This document shows positions 7,825-56,239 of a stretch of 64,000 bases of DNA, piece by piece. Numbering within the stretch: position 1 is the first letter of the stretch; each line of letters starts with the position of its first letter. This DNA is from Escherichia phage A4. The notes under the pieces were generated by a model that was not told where the DNA came from, did not search any database, and saw only the letters and a list, made by a program, of their open reading frames with translations. The stretch lies in sequence record ON286972; one strand, written 5' to 3'. A program made the translations under genes and the position numbers.

Positions 7825-8553
7825 GTGATTGACCGTATCAGATTTGCCAGCGAGTTAGCAAACCAATTAAACATTGCAAATTTCCAAATGCTAACATCCG
7901 TAATGGCAGAACATGCAACTGCATATTCAGTAAGTGGTGTCCAATGCGGACAAGAGAATTTACTAGCTGATGTATACAGTGAAGTGCAAGGTAAACAATA
8001 TTCAGTCAAAACATACAAGGATAAGTTTGTTAGTCTGTATATGAACGGCGATATTGAAGAAGAACGTAAGTTTACCGATTTTATTATTGAACGCCGTGTA
8101 TCAGGTGTGTCAAACCCGAATGCTGCAAGTGATGTAGTATTTGATGAAGTACTGAAAGATATATACGAAAATGAAGCAAAAAGTAAGAATCATTACAATG
8201 TACGTGAAACTAACACAGTGCTCTTGGGATATGATGAAGACGAATTTTTCTATTATTTCCGTATAACTGAAGTACCTTTTGATTATAAAAAACCACATAC
8301 CACATGTGCTCGTGAATTTACTGAAAAGAGTAAAAACTACAAAAAGCACGAAGGTAATCGTTGTAGCGTAAATGGTTATGATGAGAATGGTGTACACATT
8401 TATGAATGGGTGCACCCGAACTGTCAGACTTACACACGTTGCCTTAAAAAGAGATATAATTTAGAAGAACATGAGTCTTTCTACTTCAAAGTTAAGAAGC
8501 AAGATTATAACAGACCAGACGATTCTGAATTACTTGGTATGATTTACTTCTAA
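7825..8553 (+). CDS. Hypothetical protein (242 aa)
   Basis: GTG start 9 nt after AAGGAG. Confidence 0.55.
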   Translation: MIDRIRFASELANQLNIANFQMLTSVMAEHATAYSVSGVQCGQENLLADVYSEVQGKQYSVKTYKDKFVSLYMNGDIEEERKFTDFIIERRVSGVSNPNAASDVVFDEVLKDIYENEAKSKNHYNVRETNTVLLGYDEDEFFYYFRITEVPFDYKKPHTTCAREFTEKSKNYKKHEGNRCSVNGYDENGVHIYEWVHPNCQTYTRCLKKRYNLEEHESFYFKVKKQDYNRPDDSELLGMIYF

Positions 8554-8561
8554 GGTAAGTT

Positions 8562-8840
8562 ATGAATTTACAAAGAGATGTGTGGACATATGAATATCTT
8601 TTAGAACTTTATGGTGATATGTATATTAAAAATAAACCATACATAGACGATATAAGGGCTATGATAGATGATTTTTCTTCTGAGTTTATTCCACTTTATA
8701 CTAATAAAGAAGTTACACATAAATCAATGAATAAATCAGGTATCATTGATGAAATTGATTTTGATACACATGGTGTATATTTTTATATTATTTTCTCCAA
8801 TGATACTGTTGGTATATACACGTATAAAGAATTAAAATAA
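8562..8840 (+). CDS. Hypothetical protein (92 aa)
   Basis: Track ORF followed by terminator. Confidence 0.5.
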   Translation: MNLQRDVWTYEYLLELYGDMYIKNKPYIDDIRAMIDDFSSEFIPLYTNKEVTHKSMNKSGIIDEIDFDTHGVYFYIIFSNDTVGIYTYKELK

Positions 8841-8845
8841 GTACA

Positions 8846-8872
8846 GGCCAGCATGGATTGCTGGTCTTTTTT
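8846..8872 (+). terminator. Rho-independent terminator
   Basis: Hairpin ccagc-atggatt-gctgg followed by TCTTTTTT. Confidence 0.55.
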
Positions 8873-8883
8873 GTAGGTACATT

Positions 8884-9183
8884 ATGGACAAAATACAATT
8901 AGTTAGTAGTACGATAACAATGCTCGCAGATGCTGCCAGATGGAGCAGTGGTGGTTCCGTTAGTACTATGCTCAGTATACTCACGCAATACACCTATACC
9001 TGCAATGCAATGTTATATGGCAAGGAAGTTGAAATTGATGATCCCTATGGAATTCCCATATCATATGACCGAGGTGTAATAAAAAGGGTTACTATGAGAC
9101 TAACATATCATCCATATTTTGTAGTAGAACTTCCTGATGGAAAATTAAGAGAATATGTTGCTAAAAGGTTAAAACTAAAATGA
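8884..9183 (+). CDS. Hypothetical protein (99 aa)
   Basis: Track ORF. Confidence 0.5.
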   Translation: MDKIQLVSSTITMLADAARWSSGGSVSTMLSILTQYTYTCNAMLYGKEVEIDDPYGIPISYDRGVIKRVTMRLTYHPYFVVELPDGKLREYVAKRLKLK

Positions 9184-9758
9184 ATATTGTAGAATTAAGT
9201 ACTAAGCTGATTACTATGCGTAACGAGTGGTACAATTGGTATTATAACGGTACTGACATGGATTTTTCAAAATATCCATTTATGGAATCAGGATGTGATT
9301 CAAGATACCGCTGGTTGAGTAAAGATGATTCTGGTTTACATATTCGAGTTGATGATAGTGGTCAGGGAATTATAAAAGATTTACTTCAAGTTGAAGAACT
9401 CGTCCATGATGAGTGGTGTGATAATGATCCATACCTAGGAAATATAATTTATGTAACTGAAGATGATTGTATATTCGTCATTCAGCGTCATGGTGATTCT
9501 ATGTTTTATATAGCAGACAGCAGTACACCTGAAGGTGCAGCATCAGATGGTCTTATTCCTAAGATTAATATATTAGATTTTGGCTTACCTGAGCACTTCC
9601 AGATGAGTACTCTATTCGATATTCCACCGTTTGAGTTCTTTGAAGAATTTAAATTGTACTACAGTGATCTTCAGAAATTGAGTACCGAGAGTCGTATTGA
9701 AATAACTGTCAGGTACATGGACGGGGCAAAATTAACCGACACGGGGATAGAATTTTGA
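9180..9758 (+). CDS. Hypothetical protein (192 aa)
   Basis: Track ORF, ATGA overlap. Confidence 0.55.
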   Translation: MNIVELSTKLITMRNEWYNWYYNGTDMDFSKYPFMESGCDSRYRWLSKDDSGLHIRVDDSGQGIIKDLLQVEELVHDEWCDNDPYLGNIIYVTEDDCIFVIQRHGDSMFYIADSSTPEGAASDGLIPKINILDFGLPEHFQMSTLFDIPPFEFFEEFKLYYSDLQKLSTESRIEITVRYMDGAKLTDTGIEF

Positions 9759-10444
9759 TTAAAGATTTAGATAGAATTTTATATGTACTAAGGGGTGTAA
9801 TTACTTTACAACCACAGATTAACCGCATGGAGAGAGCCTTTGAATTAAAATCAAGAGAAACTCCATATTCACATATATCAAATGTAGTTGGATCATTCTG
9901 CTCTGAAGACTCTCCTTACGATATTTGTGTATGTGAAGTACAGCCCAGTAATGATCTTGGTTTTGCAATCTTCGATAAAAATCAAGTACTGGTCAGTATG
10001 TTTCAGTGTAATAATCCTTTCTGGAAAACATGCCTGTACCCTGATTGGGCTATGCTTGACCCTACGAATAGTAAGATTAAAGTATATGACTCTAAGAATG
10101 AAGAAGTTGTTATTGATTTAGATGAATCAATGACAGAGGAAGAACACTTCCAGCTTATGATGATGCGTGCAATGCCAGACTATGAAGCAATGATTAACAC
10201 CGTACAATACATTAAGGATACGATGAGATCATTGCGTACACATGAGTTTTGTCATCCAGTATCGTATGAACATTTGGATTTAGATTTCAGTACTATCAAG
10301 TTTAAAGATAGTGTTATTGAATATATCCAAGAGAACACTAAATTTGATTTTATTAGTACTATGATTAATAATCCTGATACAAATTTCAGGCATCAGTACA
10401 ATGAATCTTTGTCTGGTGGTCGAGATACCAGTTGGTGGAAATAA
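9755..10444 (+). CDS. Hypothetical protein (229 aa)
   Basis: Track ORF, overlap with upstream stop. Confidence 0.55.
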   Translation: MIKDLDRILYVLRGVITLQPQINRMERAFELKSRETPYSHISNVVGSFCSEDSPYDICVCEVQPSNDLGFAIFDKNQVLVSMFQCNNPFWKTCLYPDWAMLDPTNSKIKVYDSKNEEVVIDLDESMTEEEHFQLMMMRAMPDYEAMINTVQYIKDTMRSLRTHEFCHPVSYEHLDLDFSTIKFKDSVIEYIQENTKFDFISTMINNPDTNFRHQYNESLSGGRDTSWWK

Positions 10445-10445
10445 T

Positions 10446-10709
10446 ATGAATATCCAAGATAGATTGCAATTGTTGCACACACTTGAAGAAGCTGCTTTTG
10501 AACTTGTTAATAAAATTGCACAAGAACTCCCAAAAGGAACCAACGTTCGTGTTCGTGAAATGGATTATTTAACGGGAGAAATTGAAGAAAAAGTTCTAAC
10601 AGTGATCAAAGTAACATACTATGAATCAGAGTTATCAATTCAATGTAAGTCAGATAATGGTTACGTTTCCTACTATGGCACAGATGTAGATATAGAGGTA
10701 ATTAGATGA
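10446..10709 (+). CDS. Hypothetical protein
   Basis: Track ORF 10401-10709 trimmed to ATG 10446 just after the upstream stop. Confidence 0.45.
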   Translation: MNIQDRLQLLHTLEEAAFELVNKIAQELPKGTNVRVREMDYLTGEIEEKVLTVIKVTYYESELSIQCKSDNGYVSYYGTDVDIEVIR

Positions 10710-11851
10710 GTAATTTACGAGAAATATACAATGATTTAATGGAACTATGTGAATCTAATGATGCATTTTTCTATATAGATCACACAAGCCCTGGTGGTGG
10801 TTTATACCGTGTATTCACCTATCGTCTGGCATCTTATACCGATTTCACAAATAAAAATGCACTAGAAACTCGTGGTTCTATGTGGGAAATCGATTCCAAC
10901 GGAATTATGATTCGTTGTGCAGCACGTACAATGAAAAAGTTCTTCAATGCATATGAAAACCCGTACACAATGTTCAGTACTGATACGACATGTGATGATA
11001 TTGCAGTTGTAATGCCTAAACTTGATGGTTCTATCATCAGCACATTCCGTGATAACGATGGTGAAATCCGTTGCAAATCACACACTTCGTTATCTTCTGA
11101 CCATGCTATTAACAGTACTCGACTTTTGAACGAGAACCAAAATCTCTATCAATACATTGATGAAGCAGACCGTTTGGGCTATACTGTGAATCTGGAATAC
11201 ACAAGCCCAGAGTATCGAATTGTGTTACCATATCAGGTGGAACAGTTATTTGTTCTTAACGTTCGTCATCGTATTAGTGGTGAGTTGTTATGCGGTAAAG
11301 CACTACGTGATAAGTTTCCATGCCTTTCACAGTACAGTACTAATATGACAGGTAATGACATTCATCATACATTCCCGATTATGCCTACATTTAAAGAGTC
11401 AATCGATAAAGTACGTTCTATGATTGACATTGAAGGTTTTGTGTGTATAATGAAAGATGGTACAATGTGCAAAATCAAAACTGACTGGTATTGCTCTTTG
11501 CATTTAACAAAAGATTCCATTCTTATTGATTCCCATTTATATGAAGCTGTACTGACTGGTGCAAGTGATGACTTAAAACAATTGTTCAGTACTGATACAT
11601 ATGCAATGGATAAGATATTAAGAATGGAACAATTGGTATTTTCGTGCTATAATGCTTTACAAGATGAGGTAGAAAGCTTCGTCCATGCATACAAGCACTT
11701 AGAGCGAAAGGAATTCGCTCAAAAGGTTCAGCAAGATTTACCTAATGTATTGAACCGACAAGGCTTGGCCTTTGCGTTGTACAATGGCAAAAGTGTCGAT
11801 TATAAAGAGACTTTACTAAAGTACTACAAAGATGTACTAAAGGATTTTTAG
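10706..11851 (+). CDS. rnlA: RNA ligase 1 (T4 Rnl1-like)
   Basis: Extended similarity to recalled T4 RnlA: FFY.D..S..G...R.F.Y..AS, RG.MFE, KFFN..ENP, GYV..MKDG...KIK.DWY.SLH.TK, GASDDLK. Confidence 0.9.
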   Translation: MSNLREIYNDLMELCESNDAFFYIDHTSPGGGLYRVFTYRLASYTDFTNKNALETRGSMWEIDSNGIMIRCAARTMKKFFNAYENPYTMFSTDTTCDDIAVVMPKLDGSIISTFRDNDGEIRCKSHTSLSSDHAINSTRLLNENQNLYQYIDEADRLGYTVNLEYTSPEYRIVLPYQVEQLFVLNVRHRISGELLCGKALRDKFPCLSQYSTNMTGNDIHHTFPIMPTFKESIDKVRSMIDIEGFVCIMKDGTMCKIKTDWYCSLHLTKDSILIDSHLYEAVLTGASDDLKQLFSTDTYAMDKILRMEQLVFSCYNALQDEVESFVHAYKHLERKEFAQKVQQDLPNVLNRQGLAFALYNGKSVDYKETLLKYYKDVLKDF

Positions 11852-11880
11852 TACTAACTAGCCCAGCACAAGGAGAAGTG

Positions 11881-12135
11881 ATGGCTAAACCTAAGTATAA
11901 AAATGATGGTTCCCTTTCTCCTACTGAGTTCAGGAAAATACAACAAGAAATCGATGATTTACAGCACAAACGCTCAATGAAAGGTGTGAAGATTAGTAAG
12001 AAGCGAATCGAGAATACTTTTGGGTGTAGTAGTACTGAATATAAGAAGAAAAGGAAACCAAAGGATGTTAAGCCGAGAATACATGATGTAACTCGCTATA
12101 CATCGAAACGTGAAAATAAATTCGATCCACTATAA
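11881..12135 (+). CDS. Small basic protein (K/R-rich)
   Basis: ATG 5 nt after AAGGAG; track start GTG 11878 is adjacent. Confidence 0.5.
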   Translation: MAKPKYKNDGSLSPTEFRKIQQEIDDLQHKRSMKGVKISKKRIENTFGCSSTEYKKKRKPKDVKPRIHDVTRYTSKRENKFDPL

Positions 12136-27812: not shown

Positions 27813-28187
27813 TTATGCTTTTTTACGTAGGATGTATTGTCCATTATGTAATTTAATTTTGTGAATCATGTACATAGTGCAAAACCCTTCAATACCTGCT
27901 TCTTCATCTTTCAATTTAATGAAGAAAGTATTATCTCTTAGGCTTTCTACAAGGCTTTCATCTGAATCTTCGAAATTCATGATATATGAATCTTTATTTC
28001 TATACACCATCTGAACATATTCATAAACCTTACCGCTTTCATCGATTAGATCATAAGTATGTGCTGAACGTTGTTTTAAAATATATAGTTTACCAAGAAT
28101 AGCTGCTCCATTAATTTTAGCACCAGTAATTTCGATACCATTAATAGAAAAAGGAAGTCTTCCGGTTAATGCAATTGGTTTACCCAT
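27813..28187 (-). CDS. Small protein paralogous to the N-terminal domain of the Ig-repeat protein
   Basis: Trimmed to the ATG with GGAG RBS; LPFSINGIEITGAKINGAAILGKLYILKQRSAHTYDLID resembles the N-terminus of 28245-30413. Confidence 0.5.
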   Translation of the reverse strand: MGKPIALTGRLPFSINGIEITGAKINGAAILGKLYILKQRSAHTYDLIDESGKVYEYVQMVYRNKDSYIMNFEDSDESLVESLRDNTFFIKLKDEEAGIEGFCTMYMIHKIKLHNGQYILRKKA

Positions 28188-28244: not shown

Positions 28245-30413
28245 TTAAGCACTGATTGTTACAGTTGCAGTATCAGTTTTATTGCCATTCGCAGTAGTCA
28301 CTGTAATGACTACAGTACCTTCTTCTAGAGCAGTTACTAATCCATCATCACTAATAGATACTTTAGTAGGTTCATCTGCACTATAAGTTACTGATTTGTT
28401 AGTTGCGTTAGCTGGAAGAACTTCTGGAACTAGTTGAACTGTTTTAGTACCTGATAGTGAAAGATCAGTGGCTTTAGGTGTTAAACCAACGCTGGATACT
28501 GGTACTGGAATATTAACAGTTACAGCACATTTTGCAGTTTTTGCACCATCAGTAGTTTTTACAGTGATATCAGCAGTACCGTTTGCAACAGCAGTGATTA
28601 AACCACTTGCACTAACAGTTGCGACCCCAGCAGCAGAAGTACTATAAGTTACTGCTTTGTTAGTTGCATTAGCTGGTAGTACAGTTGGTGTTAGTTGTTG
28701 AGTTGCACCAACAGATGTTAAAGTTGCTGTTGTTGGAGAAACAGAAACACTAGCTACAGGAACTGGGATTGACACAGTAATGACACCTTGACCTGTTTTA
28801 CCACTTCCATCAGCGGCAGTTGCGATAATGTTTGCAGTACCGTTAGTTAACGCAGTTACAACACCAGTACTAGCATCAACTTTCGCTACAGCAGGTGCAC
28901 TAGAAGACCATGTTACAGCTTTATTAGTTGCGTTAGCTGGAAGAACTTCAGCAGCCATTGCTTGAGTTGCGTTAACAGCAGTCAATGTTTTAGTTGCTGG
29001 AGTAACATTAATAGTTGTTACTGGAACTGGAATTGCTACAGTTACTGCACAAACTTTACTAAAGCCACCATCAGCAGTAGTAGCCGTGATATTAGCAGTG
29101 CCATTCGCTACCGCAGTGATTAAACCACTTGTACTAACGGTTGCAACACCAGCAGCAGAAGTTGCGTATGTTACTGCTTTGTTACGAGCATTAGCTGGTA
29201 GAACAGTTGCAGTTAATTGCTGTGTTGCACCAACAGAAGTTAATGAAGCGGTTGCAGGTGTTAGGTTAATACCAGTTACTGGAATCGTCACATCAATAAT
29301 TGATTGTGCGGTTTTTTCACCATCAATAGTTGTTACTGTAATAGTGGCAGTACCATTATTAACAGAAGTTACTAAACCGTCATCATCAACTTCTGCTACT
29401 GTAGGTGCAGAAGATTCATAACGAACTTCCTGATTTGATGCAGTTCTTGGTAGTACCGTTGCTGTTAATGGTTCATTTGCACCAATAGTAGTGAATGTAT
29501 ATGTTTCAGGTGTTAACGTAACACCAGTTACTGCTGTTTGAACTTTAATAGAAGAAGTATCAGTAAATGAACCATCTTCAGTTGTTGCAGTAATAGTAAC
29601 ATCACCATTGGATACACCTGTTACCAACCCAGAATCTTTATCAACTGTTGCAACGGATGGAGCAGATGAAGCCCATGTAACTTTCTTGTCTGTTGCTGAG
29701 GCCGGAGTAACTTCAGCTAACAATTGTTGAGTTGCCCCAACGTTTACAGTTGCAGTTTTAGGAGAAACGGTAACACCAGTAACACCAGTACTGACAACGA
29801 TAGAACACACATCTGTGAAATCACCATCGTGAGTTGTTACGGTTACATCAGCATTGCCATTTGCAAGTGCAGTTGCTAGACCTGTTTGAGCATCAACTTC
29901 AACGATTGTAGGAGCAGATGAAGAGTAGGTTACTGCCTTGTCTTTTGCATTAGATGGAACTACTTGGGCTGATAGTTGTTTTGTTGCACCAACTTTAAGA
30001 GATGCATCTTTGGGTGTAATTACAACACCAGTTACGGGGACATCAGCATTAACATAATCGCGTTTTACGATACGACCATTATTTAATTTAATAACACGAC
30101 CCATATAAAGCATAGTATATCCCATGCTAATACCATCATCAACATAGATCATGAATGAATTGTCTTGAACCATATTAATTGCGTCTGCTGGTTCAACAGA
30201 ATTTGGAATGTCGATACCACGAGTATCATACCAACGCATGGAAACTTTGTAATAGATATCACCATTATCATTGATGAGATCATACACGTTACCGGAACGT
30301 TGACGGTTAATATATAAAGTTTCGGTTAACACCTTACCATCGATTTTAGCGACGGAAACTTTAATACCACCAATACCAAAAGGCAATTTACCTTCACTAG
30401 ATATTGCTTTCAT
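28245..30413 (-). CDS. Virion-associated candidate with N-terminal domain plus seven Big_2 Ig-like repeats
   Basis: Seven ~85 aa repeats of VTPA..L.VGATQQL.A.VLPANATNKAVT..SSAP.VA.V...GL.TAV..G.A.IT..T.DG; late promoter upstream. Confidence 0.75.
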   Translation of the reverse strand: MKAISSEGKLPFGIGGIKVSVAKIDGKVLTETLYINRQRSGNVYDLINDNGDIYYKVSMRWYDTRGIDIPNSVEPADAINMVQDNSFMIYVDDGISMGYTMLYMGRVIKLNNGRIVKRDYVNADVPVTGVVITPKDASLKVGATKQLSAQVVPSNAKDKAVTYSSSAPTIVEVDAQTGLATALANGNADVTVTTHDGDFTDVCSIVVSTGVTGVTVSPKTATVNVGATQQLLAEVTPASATDKKVTWASSAPSVATVDKDSGLVTGVSNGDVTITATTEDGSFTDTSSIKVQTAVTGVTLTPETYTFTTIGANEPLTATVLPRTASNQEVRYESSAPTVAEVDDDGLVTSVNNGTATITVTTIDGEKTAQSIIDVTIPVTGINLTPATASLTSVGATQQLTATVLPANARNKAVTYATSAAGVATVSTSGLITAVANGTANITATTADGGFSKVCAVTVAIPVPVTTINVTPATKTLTAVNATQAMAAEVLPANATNKAVTWSSSAPAVAKVDASTGVVTALTNGTANIIATAADGSGKTGQGVITVSIPVPVASVSVSPTTATLTSVGATQQLTPTVLPANATNKAVTYSTSAAGVATVSASGLITAVANGTADITVKTTDGAKTAKCAVTVNIPVPVSSVGLTPKATDLSLSGTKTVQLVPEVLPANATNKSVTYSADEPTKVSISDDGLVTALEEGTVVITVTTANGNKTDTATVTISA
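28250..30050 (-). repeat. Tandem ~260 bp coding repeats (Big_2 domain units)
   Basis: Recurring gttactgctttgttagttgcattagctgg-like segments at ~260 bp periodicity. Confidence 0.6.
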
Positions 30414-30481: not shown

Positions 30482-30504
30482 AAAAAAGGAGTCCGAAGAC
30501 TCCT
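30482..30504 (-). terminator. Rho-independent terminator (minus strand)
   Basis: Hairpin ggagtc-cgaa-gactcc with T-run on the minus strand, just downstream of the gene ending at 30517. Confidence 0.5.
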
Positions 30505-30516
30505 TAAAATATAAAG

Positions 30517-31020
30517 TTATTGGAAACGAGCATACGGTGGAAATCTGGTTTGGTCAGGCCAATCTTTCGGAGAGAAGTAAGCAGTGAATTGCATTTTATC
30601 ATTTGAATAAAGAACAAAATCATCTGGCTTTATTATAACTTTAGACAACGAATTTGGCTCCACGTTCGTTCTTCTGAAAATTATTTCACCATTATGTAAT
30701 TTTATTTTATTACTTTGATATTGAATACCAAAACCATACTTATTATTAATAGCATCAGCTTCTTTTATGCAAAATGTATTATTTGCTAAAGATTTAGCAA
30801 TTTCAGCATCGTCATCATCATACTACAATGTTGATTTATCTTTATTTCTACCTGTGATTTTTATCTTGAAATTTTCAGATATTAAATCATATGAATCGAA
30901 TGTTCTTTGTTTTATAACATACAATTCTTTAACAAATACTTGCCCTTCTATCTTTGCAGCAGTAACCTGCAATCCACCTATAACAAATGGAAATTGATCT
31001 AAGCCAGCTATTGGTTTCAT
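30517..31020 (-). pseudogene. Third N-domain paralog interrupted by a single in-frame TAG (nonsense allele or read-through gene)
   Basis: Track ORF 30823-31020 ends at TAG; the same frame continues 101 codons to TAA at 30517-30519 and stays similar to paralog 27813-28187. Confidence 0.45.
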
Positions 31021-31154
31021 AACATCTCCTTACCTTAAAAATGGGATTGTAAACTGCCTCCCAATATGATACCATAGTTCAAATGGTCAATTGGTAAATC
31101 AATGAACTTAACAAAAACACTTGATACTACAGTCATAATTGTTCAGTTTTGCAC

Positions 31155-35100: not shown

Positions 35101-36540
35101 ATGAAAAAATACACAATTGACACAAACGTACTACTATCCGATCCAAATGCAACTGTAGCATTTGATGGGGCAGCAGTGATTCTACCATTCACTGTTCTTG
35201 AAGAACTTGATTCAATCAAGAGCCGTAATGTTGACGTATCACGTGATGCACGTTTCGCAATCCGTAACATCGATGCAATTCTGAAAGATGCTACTCATGA
35301 AGAAATCAGCAGTACTGGTGTTAATATTGCCAATATCCACAAAAATATGGATGCATCCAGTAAGCTATTCGTTATGACGAATGAAGAAGCTGAAGCACTT
35401 ATTCGTATGGGCGGCAGTGAAGATAAAGTAGAAACTCTACTTAAAAGTACTGTACCAGATGACAAAATCATTCTAGTGGCTTTGGCATCACAATCAGTAC
35501 TGGTAACTCGCGACATTAACATGCGTATCAAAGCAATGAGCTACGGTGTTGAGGTACAAGATTACCGTCATGACGTTGCAATCGAAGATAGTGAGTTGAT
35601 TCATATTGGTCAGCACCACCTTGATATTGATTTCTGGAAAACATTCAGTGAAGTTAATAATGCTGAAATTAAATCCCAACAAGAAGGTCGCCGTCTATAT
35701 CACTATATTCCAACCGCATTGATTCAAGATGTTCTACCAGATAATCTATGTATTGGTGATTATCTATATGATAATGCTGATGTACTATTCGTATACGAAG
35801 GTCAATCTGCTATCGAAGAAGAAGACGGTTCACTAACACCTGAAGATATTTTGGTATTCCAGGATATTGGTCAAAGTATCGCTCTTCGTGCTAAAGTTTG
35901 GGATATTAAAGCAAAGAATATTCAACAGGCACTAGCAATTAACAGTATTCTTGACCCTGATGTACATTTGACAGTACTACTCGGTTCAGCAGGTACTGGT
36001 AAAACATTGATTACTGTTGCTACTTCACTCGAATTAGTGCTGGAAAAACGTAAATACGATCGTATAATCTTCTCCAAAACACAAGATTCTCAATTTGAAG
36101 AAATTGGTTTCTTGCCTGGTTCTGAAGCTGAGAAGGTCATCCCATTCTGTGGGGCTGCAATTGATGCACTAGAGTATCTACACAAAGACGATGCTAACCC
36201 ACAAGGTAGTATTGAAGAGATTCTCAAACGTAACGTAATGCAGTTTAAAGCATTGAACTTTATTCGTGGTCGTTCTTTTACTAATACAATTCTAATTGTT
36301 GATGAATTCCAGAACATCACCCCTGCACAGGCAAAAACTATTCTTACCCGTGCAGGTCAAAACTGTAAGGTTATCATTATGGGTAACTTAGCACAGATTG
36401 ATAGTAAGTTTATTAGTCCAGTTAATAGTGGTTTGACATATGTAACTGAAAAATTCAAAGATTGGGAAGGGTGTCGTATCATTGAATTGGAAGGTGTTGT
36501 ACGTTCTGCACTTGCAGAGTTTGCAGAAGAAAATATGTAA
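35101..36540 (+). CDS. phoH: PhoH-like ATPase with N-terminal PIN domain
   Basis: Trimmed to ATG 35101; PIN-like N-terminus (IDTNVLL), Walker A GSAGTGKT, Walker B-like ILIVDEFQN. Confidence 0.8.
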   Translation: MKKYTIDTNVLLSDPNATVAFDGAAVILPFTVLEELDSIKSRNVDVSRDARFAIRNIDAILKDATHEEISSTGVNIANIHKNMDASSKLFVMTNEEAEALIRMGGSEDKVETLLKSTVPDDKIILVALASQSVLVTRDINMRIKAMSYGVEVQDYRHDVAIEDSELIHIGQHHLDIDFWKTFSEVNNAEIKSQQEGRRLYHYIPTALIQDVLPDNLCIGDYLYDNADVLFVYEGQSAIEEEDGSLTPEDILVFQDIGQSIALRAKVWDIKAKNIQQALAINSILDPDVHLTVLLGSAGTGKTLITVATSLELVLEKRKYDRIIFSKTQDSQFEEIGFLPGSEAEKVIPFCGAAIDALEYLHKDDANPQGSIEEILKRNVMQFKALNFIRGRSFTNTILIVDEFQNITPAQAKTILTRAGQNCKVIIMGNLAQIDSKFISPVNSGLTYVTEKFKDWEGCRIIELEGVVRSALAEFAEENM

Positions 36541-36547
36541 TCTATTA

Positions 36548-36576
36548 TTGACATTAAATGTGTTCATTGCTATAAT
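36548..36576 (+). promoter_or_regulatory. Consensus sigma70 promoter
   Basis: TTGACA, 17 nt spacer, TATAAT, about 30 nt upstream of 36609. Confidence 0.65.
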
Positions 36577-36608
36577 GAACACACCATTATCGAAGAAGGA
36601 AGTAAATC

Positions 36609-36797
36609 ATGGCTAAACAACCTAAGAAAAAAGAACCAGAAGTTAAAGTTAAAAAAGTGAAAGTTATTCAATCCAAAGAACAACGCACTTATGAGCTACG
36701 TAAAGCTGAAACTTTAAGTGGGCTTCAGTCTCTACGTAAGCAAGGTGTACTAACACGTGCACAATATCGTGAACTGGTTGCACAAAAAGGTTTTTGA
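36609..36797 (+). CDS. Small lysine-rich protein (62 aa)
   Basis: Directly downstream of a consensus promoter; GAAGGAAG RBS. Confidence 0.55.
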   Translation: MAKQPKKKEPEVKVKKVKVIQSKEQRTYELRKAETLSGLQSLRKQGVLTRAQYRELVAQKGF

Positions 36798-36902
36798 TTT
36801 AACGCGTTTTTTTGGAGTTCTTAATAAATACTTTCATAAGAATAATAATACTTTTTATGAATTTAAAAAGAACTCCATGTGTTATTTCAGTAAGTTTTTC
36901 AT

Positions 36903-55525: not shown

Positions 55526-55609
55526 TATTATTGAATATTGGTCTAAATGGGTCTAAAAAATCCACTTAGACCAATAAATACCCAATAATAACTAATTTAA
55601 GGATGGATT

Positions 55610-56239
55610 ATGGCTATTTCCTTTTACACCACAATGGAAGTTACTGGTGTTGTTAAATTCTCGAAAGCTGAATTTAAAAAACCAATATTAACATTTGATA
55701 CATCGTCTTTTAATATTATCAGAACACACGAAATTTCTGGTGCAGATAATCATTTAAGTAATTCAGTGATTACAACACTAGGAACAGATAGCAACCAATC
55801 GTTACAGATTGCTGCGTGGGCTGGGATGACAGAGACTAATAACGGTGTTAAAATACAAGCACGCACAACAAATGACACAAACAGTACTGAATGGGTTACA
55901 TTATATGATAGCTCCAACAGTACTGTGACAGTATTACCACAAGCTGATAGTTACGATATAGATACCAGTACTGGTAATAAAGTTTTTAATTTAACTCTAA
56001 ACAAACCAAACACTACAATTAATATCCTTCCTAATGCTAAAACTCAAGTATATGATTGCACTGTTATCATAGAACAAGGCACAGGTTCAAATCTTGTAAG
56101 CTGGAGTTCTAATGTGAAATGGTCATTCAATCGTCAAGTTCTTCTTTCATATGAACAATCCCAAAAAGATATAATTTCCCTAGAAACCTATGATGGTGGT
56201 ATTACATGGTACGGTGCTCTTATTCGAGCAGGGGTATAA
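55610..56239 (+). CDS. Hypothetical protein (209 aa), Ser/Thr/Asn-rich
   Basis: AAGGATGG RBS. Confidence 0.5.
   Translation: MAISFYTTMEVTGVVKFSKAEFKKPILTFDTSSFNIIRTHEISGADNHLSNSVITTLGTDSNQSLQIAAWAGMTETNNGVKIQARTTNDTNSTEWVTLYDSSNSTVTVLPQADSYDIDTSTGNKVFNLTLNKPNTTINILPNAKTQVYDCTVIIEQGTGSNLVSWSSNVKWSFNRQVLLSYEQSQKDIISLETYDGGITWYGALIRAGV

Follow-up and report, generated by a model that had tools for sequence, protein, structure and literature searches.

In the 64,000-nucleotide (nt) stretch that we analyzed from the genome of Escherichia phage A4, an Asteriusvirus-like jumbo phage (record ON286972; hereafter, the window), the first of three tandem minus-strand paralogs, here called genes A, B, and C, is interrupted by an in-frame amber codon. 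We find that gene A of phage A4 is, in all probability, a young amber pseudogene (TTG>TAG) of a dispensable, redundant paralog. Its open reading frame (ORF) starts with ATG at positions 31020-31018, and runs for 65 sense codons to TAG at 30825-30823 (CTA on the plus strand); beyond it, the frame stays open over another 101 sense codons, as far as TAA at 30519-30517. These boundaries are exactly those given in a preliminary description made from the sequence of the window (ORF at 30823-31020, frame open for 101 codons to TAA at 30517-30519). In the A4 lineage, a single T>A substitution turned the leucine codon TTG into the amber codon TAG at codon 66; we propose that translation now stops after 65 residues and that the following 303 nt are left untranslated. 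The event is very recent and affected a dispensable copy, the same copy that close and more distant relatives have lost through other inactivating changes or deletions.

The ancestral state of codon 66 is seen in very close relatives of A4. The 90%-identity protein cluster of the 65-amino-acid (aa) ORF includes P0003, a 171-aa intact allele that occurs in ERR7425836 and on contigs of phage size among E. coli assemblies and is carried by loci L009 and L010. Over 16.5 kilobases (kb), identity to the window is 99.06% for locus L010 and 98.55% for L009. In a DNA alignment, codon 66 is TTG (Leu) in L009 and L010, TTA (Leu) in the more distant locus L006 (SRR30543657, 97.7% identical to the window), and TAG in the window. 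Inside gene A, the differences between L010 and the window are limited to TTG/TAG and a 12-nt in-frame indel. The 306 nt after codon 66 match the window in both L009 and L010, with zero substitutions relative to the intact allele of L010; just outside the ORF, the T run of the terminator is one base shorter in the window. Because codon 66 is a sense codon in phages that are ~99% identical, we conclude that the TAG is a single derived T>A change (TTG to TAG), which arose on the A4 branch after <1% divergence. The preliminary description had listed a very recent nonsense mutation among its explanations and had recommended a comparison of alleles in related phages; the sense codons and the identical downstream sequence of the close relatives bear this explanation out. 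Searches of IMG/VR, JGI metagenomes, and complete E. coli genomes returned no further gene A alleles.

The gene A elements to which we refer below, all on the minus strand, are as follows.

31063-31090: promoter-like site (TTGACC, 16 nt, CATATT) upstream of gene A, from a consensus scan; weak evidence.
31026-31031: ribosome-binding site AAGGAG, 5 nt before the ATG, read from the sequence.
30826-31020: 5' part of gene A, 65 sense codons, corresponding to the first beta-strand half of the N-terminal domain (phrog_33171 match; AlphaFold2 model of paralog C).
30864-30865: junction at which 12 nt of the intact allele are missing, with the frame kept; from the DNA alignment.
30823-30825: in-frame amber codon TAG, codon 66; TTG (Leu) in intact alleles and TTA (Leu) in L006.
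30520-30822: 101 former codons, predicted to be untranslated; they correspond to the second half of the N-terminal domain, which reaches about codon 116, then to ~40 residues from the start of an Ig-like domain, and finally to a tail of 9 residues.
30544-30548: end of homology to the long form of gene A in L006; from here on, the window, L009, L010, and the Asteriusvirus phages UE-S1 and ph0011 have the short form.
30517-30519: original stop TAA of gene A, also the stop of the 171-aa intact allele P0003.
30486-30505: intrinsic terminator hairpin and T run directly 3' of the TAA, between genes A and B (1 found; 0.3 expected from shuffles).

The TAG is reproducible across samples. GenBank lists the exact 65-aa ORF, ending at its TAG, for Escherichia phage A4 (355,528 bp) as USL83542.1, a "putative structural protein," and the same ORF occurs in contigs of SRR18825480, SRR18825437, and ERZ14213548. 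The SRR18825480 contig is 100% identical to the window over 12.2 kb. The ERZ14213548 contig (L004) differs from the window by 3 single-nucleotide polymorphisms (SNPs) in 6576 nt, and because it has SNPs of its own, we treat it as a separate lineage. A sequencing or assembly error, with a sense codon as the true codon, was another of the explanations in the preliminary description, and the general prior of single-base errors in phage assemblies is the one point in its favor. We consider its probability negligible: the site lies outside homopolymer runs, and an error as the source of the TAG is ruled out by at least one clearly separate assembly (ERZ14213548) among the three other samples that carry it.

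Homology extends without a break across the TAG. A tblastn search of the window with the 124-aa paralog C yields one continuous match (E = 1.4e-26; 120 aa, 41.7% identical) that extends from 31017 to 30670 and crosses the TAG, so the part downstream of the TAG does align with the paralog at 27813-28187, as described earlier. Against phage records, residues 4-158 of the fused gene A ORF align in one piece with a 212-aa protein of the Klebsiella phages RaK2 and K64-1 (tblastn, 44% identity, E = 2e-31). The profile of phrog_33171 ("virion structural protein") matches residues 1-116 of the fused ORF (E = 4.1e-16) and spans the TAG, and the phrog_10468 profile also matches (E = 5.2e-8). A stop-free run of 101 codons in sequence of 35% GC has a chance of ~1e-3 from composition, and 102 of the 8075 stop-to-stop intervals in the window are of such length.

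Genes A, B, and C belong to a family of virion-associated "structural proteins with Ig domains" of RaK2/121Q-like jumbo phages and share a conserved N-terminal domain of ~115 residues. The two sister copies, both on the minus strand, are intact.

28245-30413: paralog B, 722 aa, the N-terminal domain followed by 7 Big_2 Ig-like repeats (domain and profile searches).
27813-28187: paralog C, 124 aa, the N-terminal domain only, with the length class and locus position of 121Q gp471 and phAPEC6 gp347.

The family locus is syntenic, lying between a deoxycytidine monophosphate (dCMP) deaminase block and genes for ClpP/HslV-like proteases in 121Q, RaK2, UE-S1, ph0011, and phAPEC6. At the DNA level, the region of the window is 82 to 85% identical to UE-S1 and ph0011, and no other near matches were found in the phage collection. 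AlphaFold2 models of a RaK2-type protein (predicted local distance difference test [pLDDT] score of 84) and of paralog C (pLDDT 82, predicted template modeling score [pTM] 0.75) contain a helix (residues 76-81) flanked by two sets of five strands (22-60 and 87-120). In the model, the TAG falls between the two beta-strand halves of the domain. Fold comparison gave weak matches of SH3/Tudor type only, and the domain has no match to a Pfam family and no relative in the PDB by sequence. We presume that it is a virion-associated anchor domain. Within the family, the mass-spectrometry evidence for presence in virions is that for phAPEC6 gp347 (8 peptides, 75% coverage; PMC7247149, Table 1).

Comparison with known members of the family illustrates what gene A has lost. 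Proteins phAPEC6 gp347 and 121Q gp471 share the N-terminal domain of gene A (41 to 44% identity) and its genome position. However, these proteins are intact, single-copy, 125 aa long, and made of the N-terminal domain only, whereas gene A is a supernumerary copy that carries part of an Ig-like domain as an extension and is broken by the TAG and a 4-codon deletion. The best full-length homologs of gene A are RaK2 F403_gp039 and the "Ig-domain containing protein" of phage Muenster (212 aa), which are syntenic and combine the N-terminal domain with Big_2. In the RaK2 protein, the Big_2 domain is complete (residues 132-209) and the frame is free of internal stops; in contrast, gene A ends ~40 residues into its Ig-like domain, which is thus cut short relative to both the RaK2 protein and locus L006. 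A further likeness is to Hoc of phage T4, a dispensable virion surface protein that carries Ig-like domains and one anchoring domain and is variable between relatives. The gene A family resembles Hoc in its Ig-like domains, its presumed anchoring domain, and its variability; it differs in that the presumed anchor lies at the N-terminus and is unrelated to any protein of solved structure. Pfam and PHROG searches gave no match to Hoc.

The TAG is not the only lesion in gene A of phage A4. The 12-nt deletion removes four residues (IYKD or YKDI) from strand 5, including Tyr54, one of the 22 invariant columns in a 7-sequence alignment of the family. The preliminary description had called the paralog "otherwise intact," which does not hold, given the loss of this invariant tyrosine and the short Ig-like domain. 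The TAG lineage itself has accumulated more changes: L004 carries a second amber codon, TAT>TAG, at codon 101 (window position 30718) and a missense change, His109Asn (window position 30696), and 2 of its 3 SNPs in 6576 nt thereby fall within the 306 nt after the TAG (P = 0.006).

Relatives without the TAG have lost the same copy in other ways. In L006, an inserted A (+1) at codon 105 of gene A breaks the frame. A programmed frameshift at this insertion is unlikely, given that transcriptional slippage would need more than a run of five A's, that the site has no known +1 motif, and that the sister alleles are without the extra A. In UE-S1, what remains of gene A is the promoter region, the ribosome-binding site, the ATG, and approximately the last 95 nt, with the same 3' tail as in the window; the remnant in ph0011 is ~25 nt. 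In 121Q, gp472 (L007 4873-5004), a 43-aa "hypothetical protein" annotated upstream of gp471, starts MGEPIAGQDQFPFTLGG; it is a ~30-codon 5' remnant of a gene-A-like paralog and not a real gene. Decay of the downstream region in relatives, the observation that the preliminary description had named as one that would speak against its proposal, is thus found as lesions or remnants in L004, UE-S1, ph0011, and 121Q. Amber pseudogenes of redundant phage paralogs show the same combination of a single-base stop, an intact sister allele, added lesions, and deletion remnants; gene A differs from them in nothing essential, and what is unusual is the number of independent lesions among very close relatives.

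Before its loss, the gene was under constraint. Across 157 homologous codons, the window and L006 differ by 14 synonymous and 3 nonsynonymous substitutions (P = 5e-8 under neutrality, with 19.7% of substitutions expected to be synonymous); after the TAG, there are 10 synonymous and 2 nonsynonymous substitutions (P = 4e-6). Given this synonymous excess, we conclude that the frame still encoded protein not long before each lesion arose and that the TAG, like the L006 frameshift, is a young event. The excess alone does not distinguish neutral from selected loss.

Selected inactivation would involve the same nonsense mutation and differs from a neutral pseudogene only in why the allele persists. 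Under this hypothesis, the gene A protein is, for example, sensed by a host defense or hinders adsorption on some hosts, and knock-outs sweep repeatedly. It draws on the presence, in closely related lineages, of at least six different lesions in the same copy (TAG66, the 12-nt deletion, TAG101, the +1 frameshift, two large deletions, and the 5' remnant), on their accumulation despite strong recent constraint, and on the clustering of L004 SNPs in the region. However, relaxed selection on a redundant paralog predicts the same pattern, since genes B and C are intact. Moreover, intact alleles persist in at least two lineages, the sample is small and the evidence is at the sequence level, and no defense system is known to target the family. 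We therefore regard selected inactivation as unlikely. There is a similarly slight chance that phages turn gene A off again and again to their advantage, or that its expression depends on an amber-suppressing host; this reading draws on the many independent null lesions in one copy among phages that are 98 to 99% identical and on the strong signal of recent purifying selection. If so, the gene A protein would be costly on some hosts, possibly by triggering a defense system, and the locus would behave as a contingency locus. We favor a loss that was neutral rather than selected and infer that the 65-aa product is without function.

Regulated read-through with the help of a suppressor tRNA was the third explanation in the preliminary description. 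In a broader form, it holds that the TAG is decoded by an amber suppressor tRNA of the phage or the host, or is passed by leaky termination, to give products of 65 aa and 167 aa. The downstream frame is indeed open and identical to that of the intact allele, L004 carries another amber as its second nonsense codon, and Asteriusviruses carry tRNA clusters of their own. However, the stop is not conserved, as TTG or TTA stands in its place in relatives that are 98 to 99% identical; in L004, the downstream part has acquired a further stop and a missense change; and a 167-aa product would still lack the family-invariant Tyr54. The context of the stop is UAG-UAU, and, from work on the fourth base, UAG-U is an efficient terminator in E. 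coli. Folding of 116 nt around and after the TAG gave a structure no better than that of shuffles (z = -0.71). TAG also serves as an ordinary terminator in this phage: it ends 6 of the 99 ORFs of the window, with back-up stops within a few codons, and no mid-ORF TAG was found in other coding ORFs of the 64 kb. Genome-wide reassignment of TAG is ruled out by the same two observations.

The tRNA genes that we surveyed offer no decoder for the TAG. No tRNA gene was found in the window. In the whole genome of Asteriusvirus ECO103 4-12-1, there are 7 tRNAs in one cluster (Thr-TGT, Asn-GTT, Met-CAT, Ser-ACT, Arg-TCT, Ser-TGA, and Gly-TCC). The cluster of UE-S1 holds the same set and one ARAGORN "tRNA-???" call, which has an anticodon of four bases (tcat) and lies partly over a coding sequence; it is the "Undet" tRNA reported for this phage (PMC12805682). 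This call is probably spurious. The cluster of L020, an A4-like genome, comprises Ser-TGA, Gly-TCC, Ser-GCT, Met-CAT, Asn-GTT, and Thr-TGT, and that of L021, a shorter contig from the sample with the double TAG, comprises Gly-TCC, Ser-GCT, Met-CAT, Asn-GTT, and Thr-TGT. The genomes with an intact allele have similar clusters (L022/L023). A tRNA with a CUA anticodon was found in none of these places, that is, the window, L020, L021, L022/L023, the UE-S1 cluster, and the whole ECO103 4-12-1 genome. Established cases of read-through and recoding, such as the A1 protein of phage Q-beta and TAG-recoded phages, resemble gene A in that an in-frame stop is followed by a long homologous frame, yet they differ from it in having a conserved stop and a leaky context or suppressor tRNA and, in recoded phages, TAGs in many genes, none of which is seen here. 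Taking both sides together, we consider functional read-through of the gene A TAG very unlikely.

As an aside on these clusters, the second tRNA-Ser has the anticodon ACT in ECO103 4-12-1, UE-S1, and L022 and GCT in the A4-like genomes L020 and L021. The sites behind this observation and the four-base UE-S1 call are L011 32413-32504, L022 11543-11634, L020 10910-10999, and L019 4413-4487.

Stop codon usage in the 99 ORFs of the window is strongly skewed, with TAA 50, TGA 43, and TAG 6.

Several observations weigh against the interpretation of gene A as a young pseudogene. The absence of substitutions after the TAG in the A4 allele fits a very young pseudogene and would also fit continued constraint. 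The SRR18825480 and SRR18825437 samples may not be independent of the A4 isolate. For A4 itself (355.5 kb), the scan for suppressor tRNAs covered the window, and a suppressor tRNA outside both the window and the tRNA cluster retains a small chance; L020 is tied to A4 by one identical neighboring protein of 117 aa (USL83815.1) only. Both nonsense codons of the TAG lineage are amber, as tolerance in amber-suppressing hosts would predict, although the probability of this by chance (0.07) is not significant. Finally, in the structural model, the 65-aa product holds a complete five-strand half-domain that resembles small SH3/Tudor-like barrels, and a residual function is possible. That the 65-aa product is itself functional, as a single small beta-barrel that still binds the virion, nevertheless seems to us highly improbable.

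The consequences of the TAG for the neighboring genes are likely to be small. Gene A is equipped with a separate ribosome-binding site and terminator, along with the promoter-like site upstream, so the TAG is probably without a polar effect on genes B and C. The ribosome-binding site AAGGAG is the same in 5 of 5 aligned alleles, and the promoter-like sequence is kept in UE-S1 and ph0011; by the consensus scan, promoter-like sites in the region are no more numerous than in shuffles.

The split of gene A is also reflected in its annotation. Within the region after the TAG, GenBank has a 43-aa "hypothetical" ORF, A4_465 (USL83541.1; minus strand, 30648-30519), with a TTG start at 30648 that follows a GGAG at a distance of 9 nt. 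Past the TAG, the frame offers its earliest start codon, a GTG, at 30663. Judged by its sequence, a product from either start would be just a fragment of the Ig-like domain, and its expression is only predicted. Most likely, A4_465 was annotated only because gene A is split and is an artefact. The two deposited A4 ORFs (65 aa and 43 aa) are pieces of one disrupted gene, for which a pseudogene label is due; they give no evidence of recoding, and the TAG of gene A implies no new mechanism. The practical value of the finding lies in this correction of the deposited annotation. We found no paper describing phage A4 in the literature.

On a small scale, the locus clearly illustrates how fast a virion surface protein can turn over among jumbo phages that are very closely related: they differ in how many paralogs and Ig-like repeats they have and in which copies are intact. 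This turnover could bear on differences in host range and surface adhesion between therapeutic Asteriusvirus isolates. There are three paralogs in A4, L009, and L010 and one in UE-S1, ph0011, 121Q, and RaK2. The length of paralog B varies with its content of Big_2 repeats, from 633 aa in UE-S1 through 722 aa in A4 and L010 and 808 aa in L009 to 890 aa in ph0011. In L006, the long form of gene A (8001-11955) continues after the inserted A for >1221 aa of Ig-like domains of HYDIN/ASH/Cep192 type, not Big_2; this length is a lower bound, as the contig ends before the stop, and paralogs B and C, if present, would lie beyond its end.

Elsewhere in the window, there are intergenic gaps of >300 nt that are free of ORFs of at least 70 aa, for example, 55526-56189, 1083-1776, and 2320-2964. 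Locus L006 also has a 253-aa gene (1661-2422) with a YadA_anchor domain and a weak match to collagen repeats, which resembles a trimeric autotransporter adhesin. This gene is inserted beside a PhoH-like gene, at a place that corresponds to ~36540-36900 in the window, where it has no counterpart.
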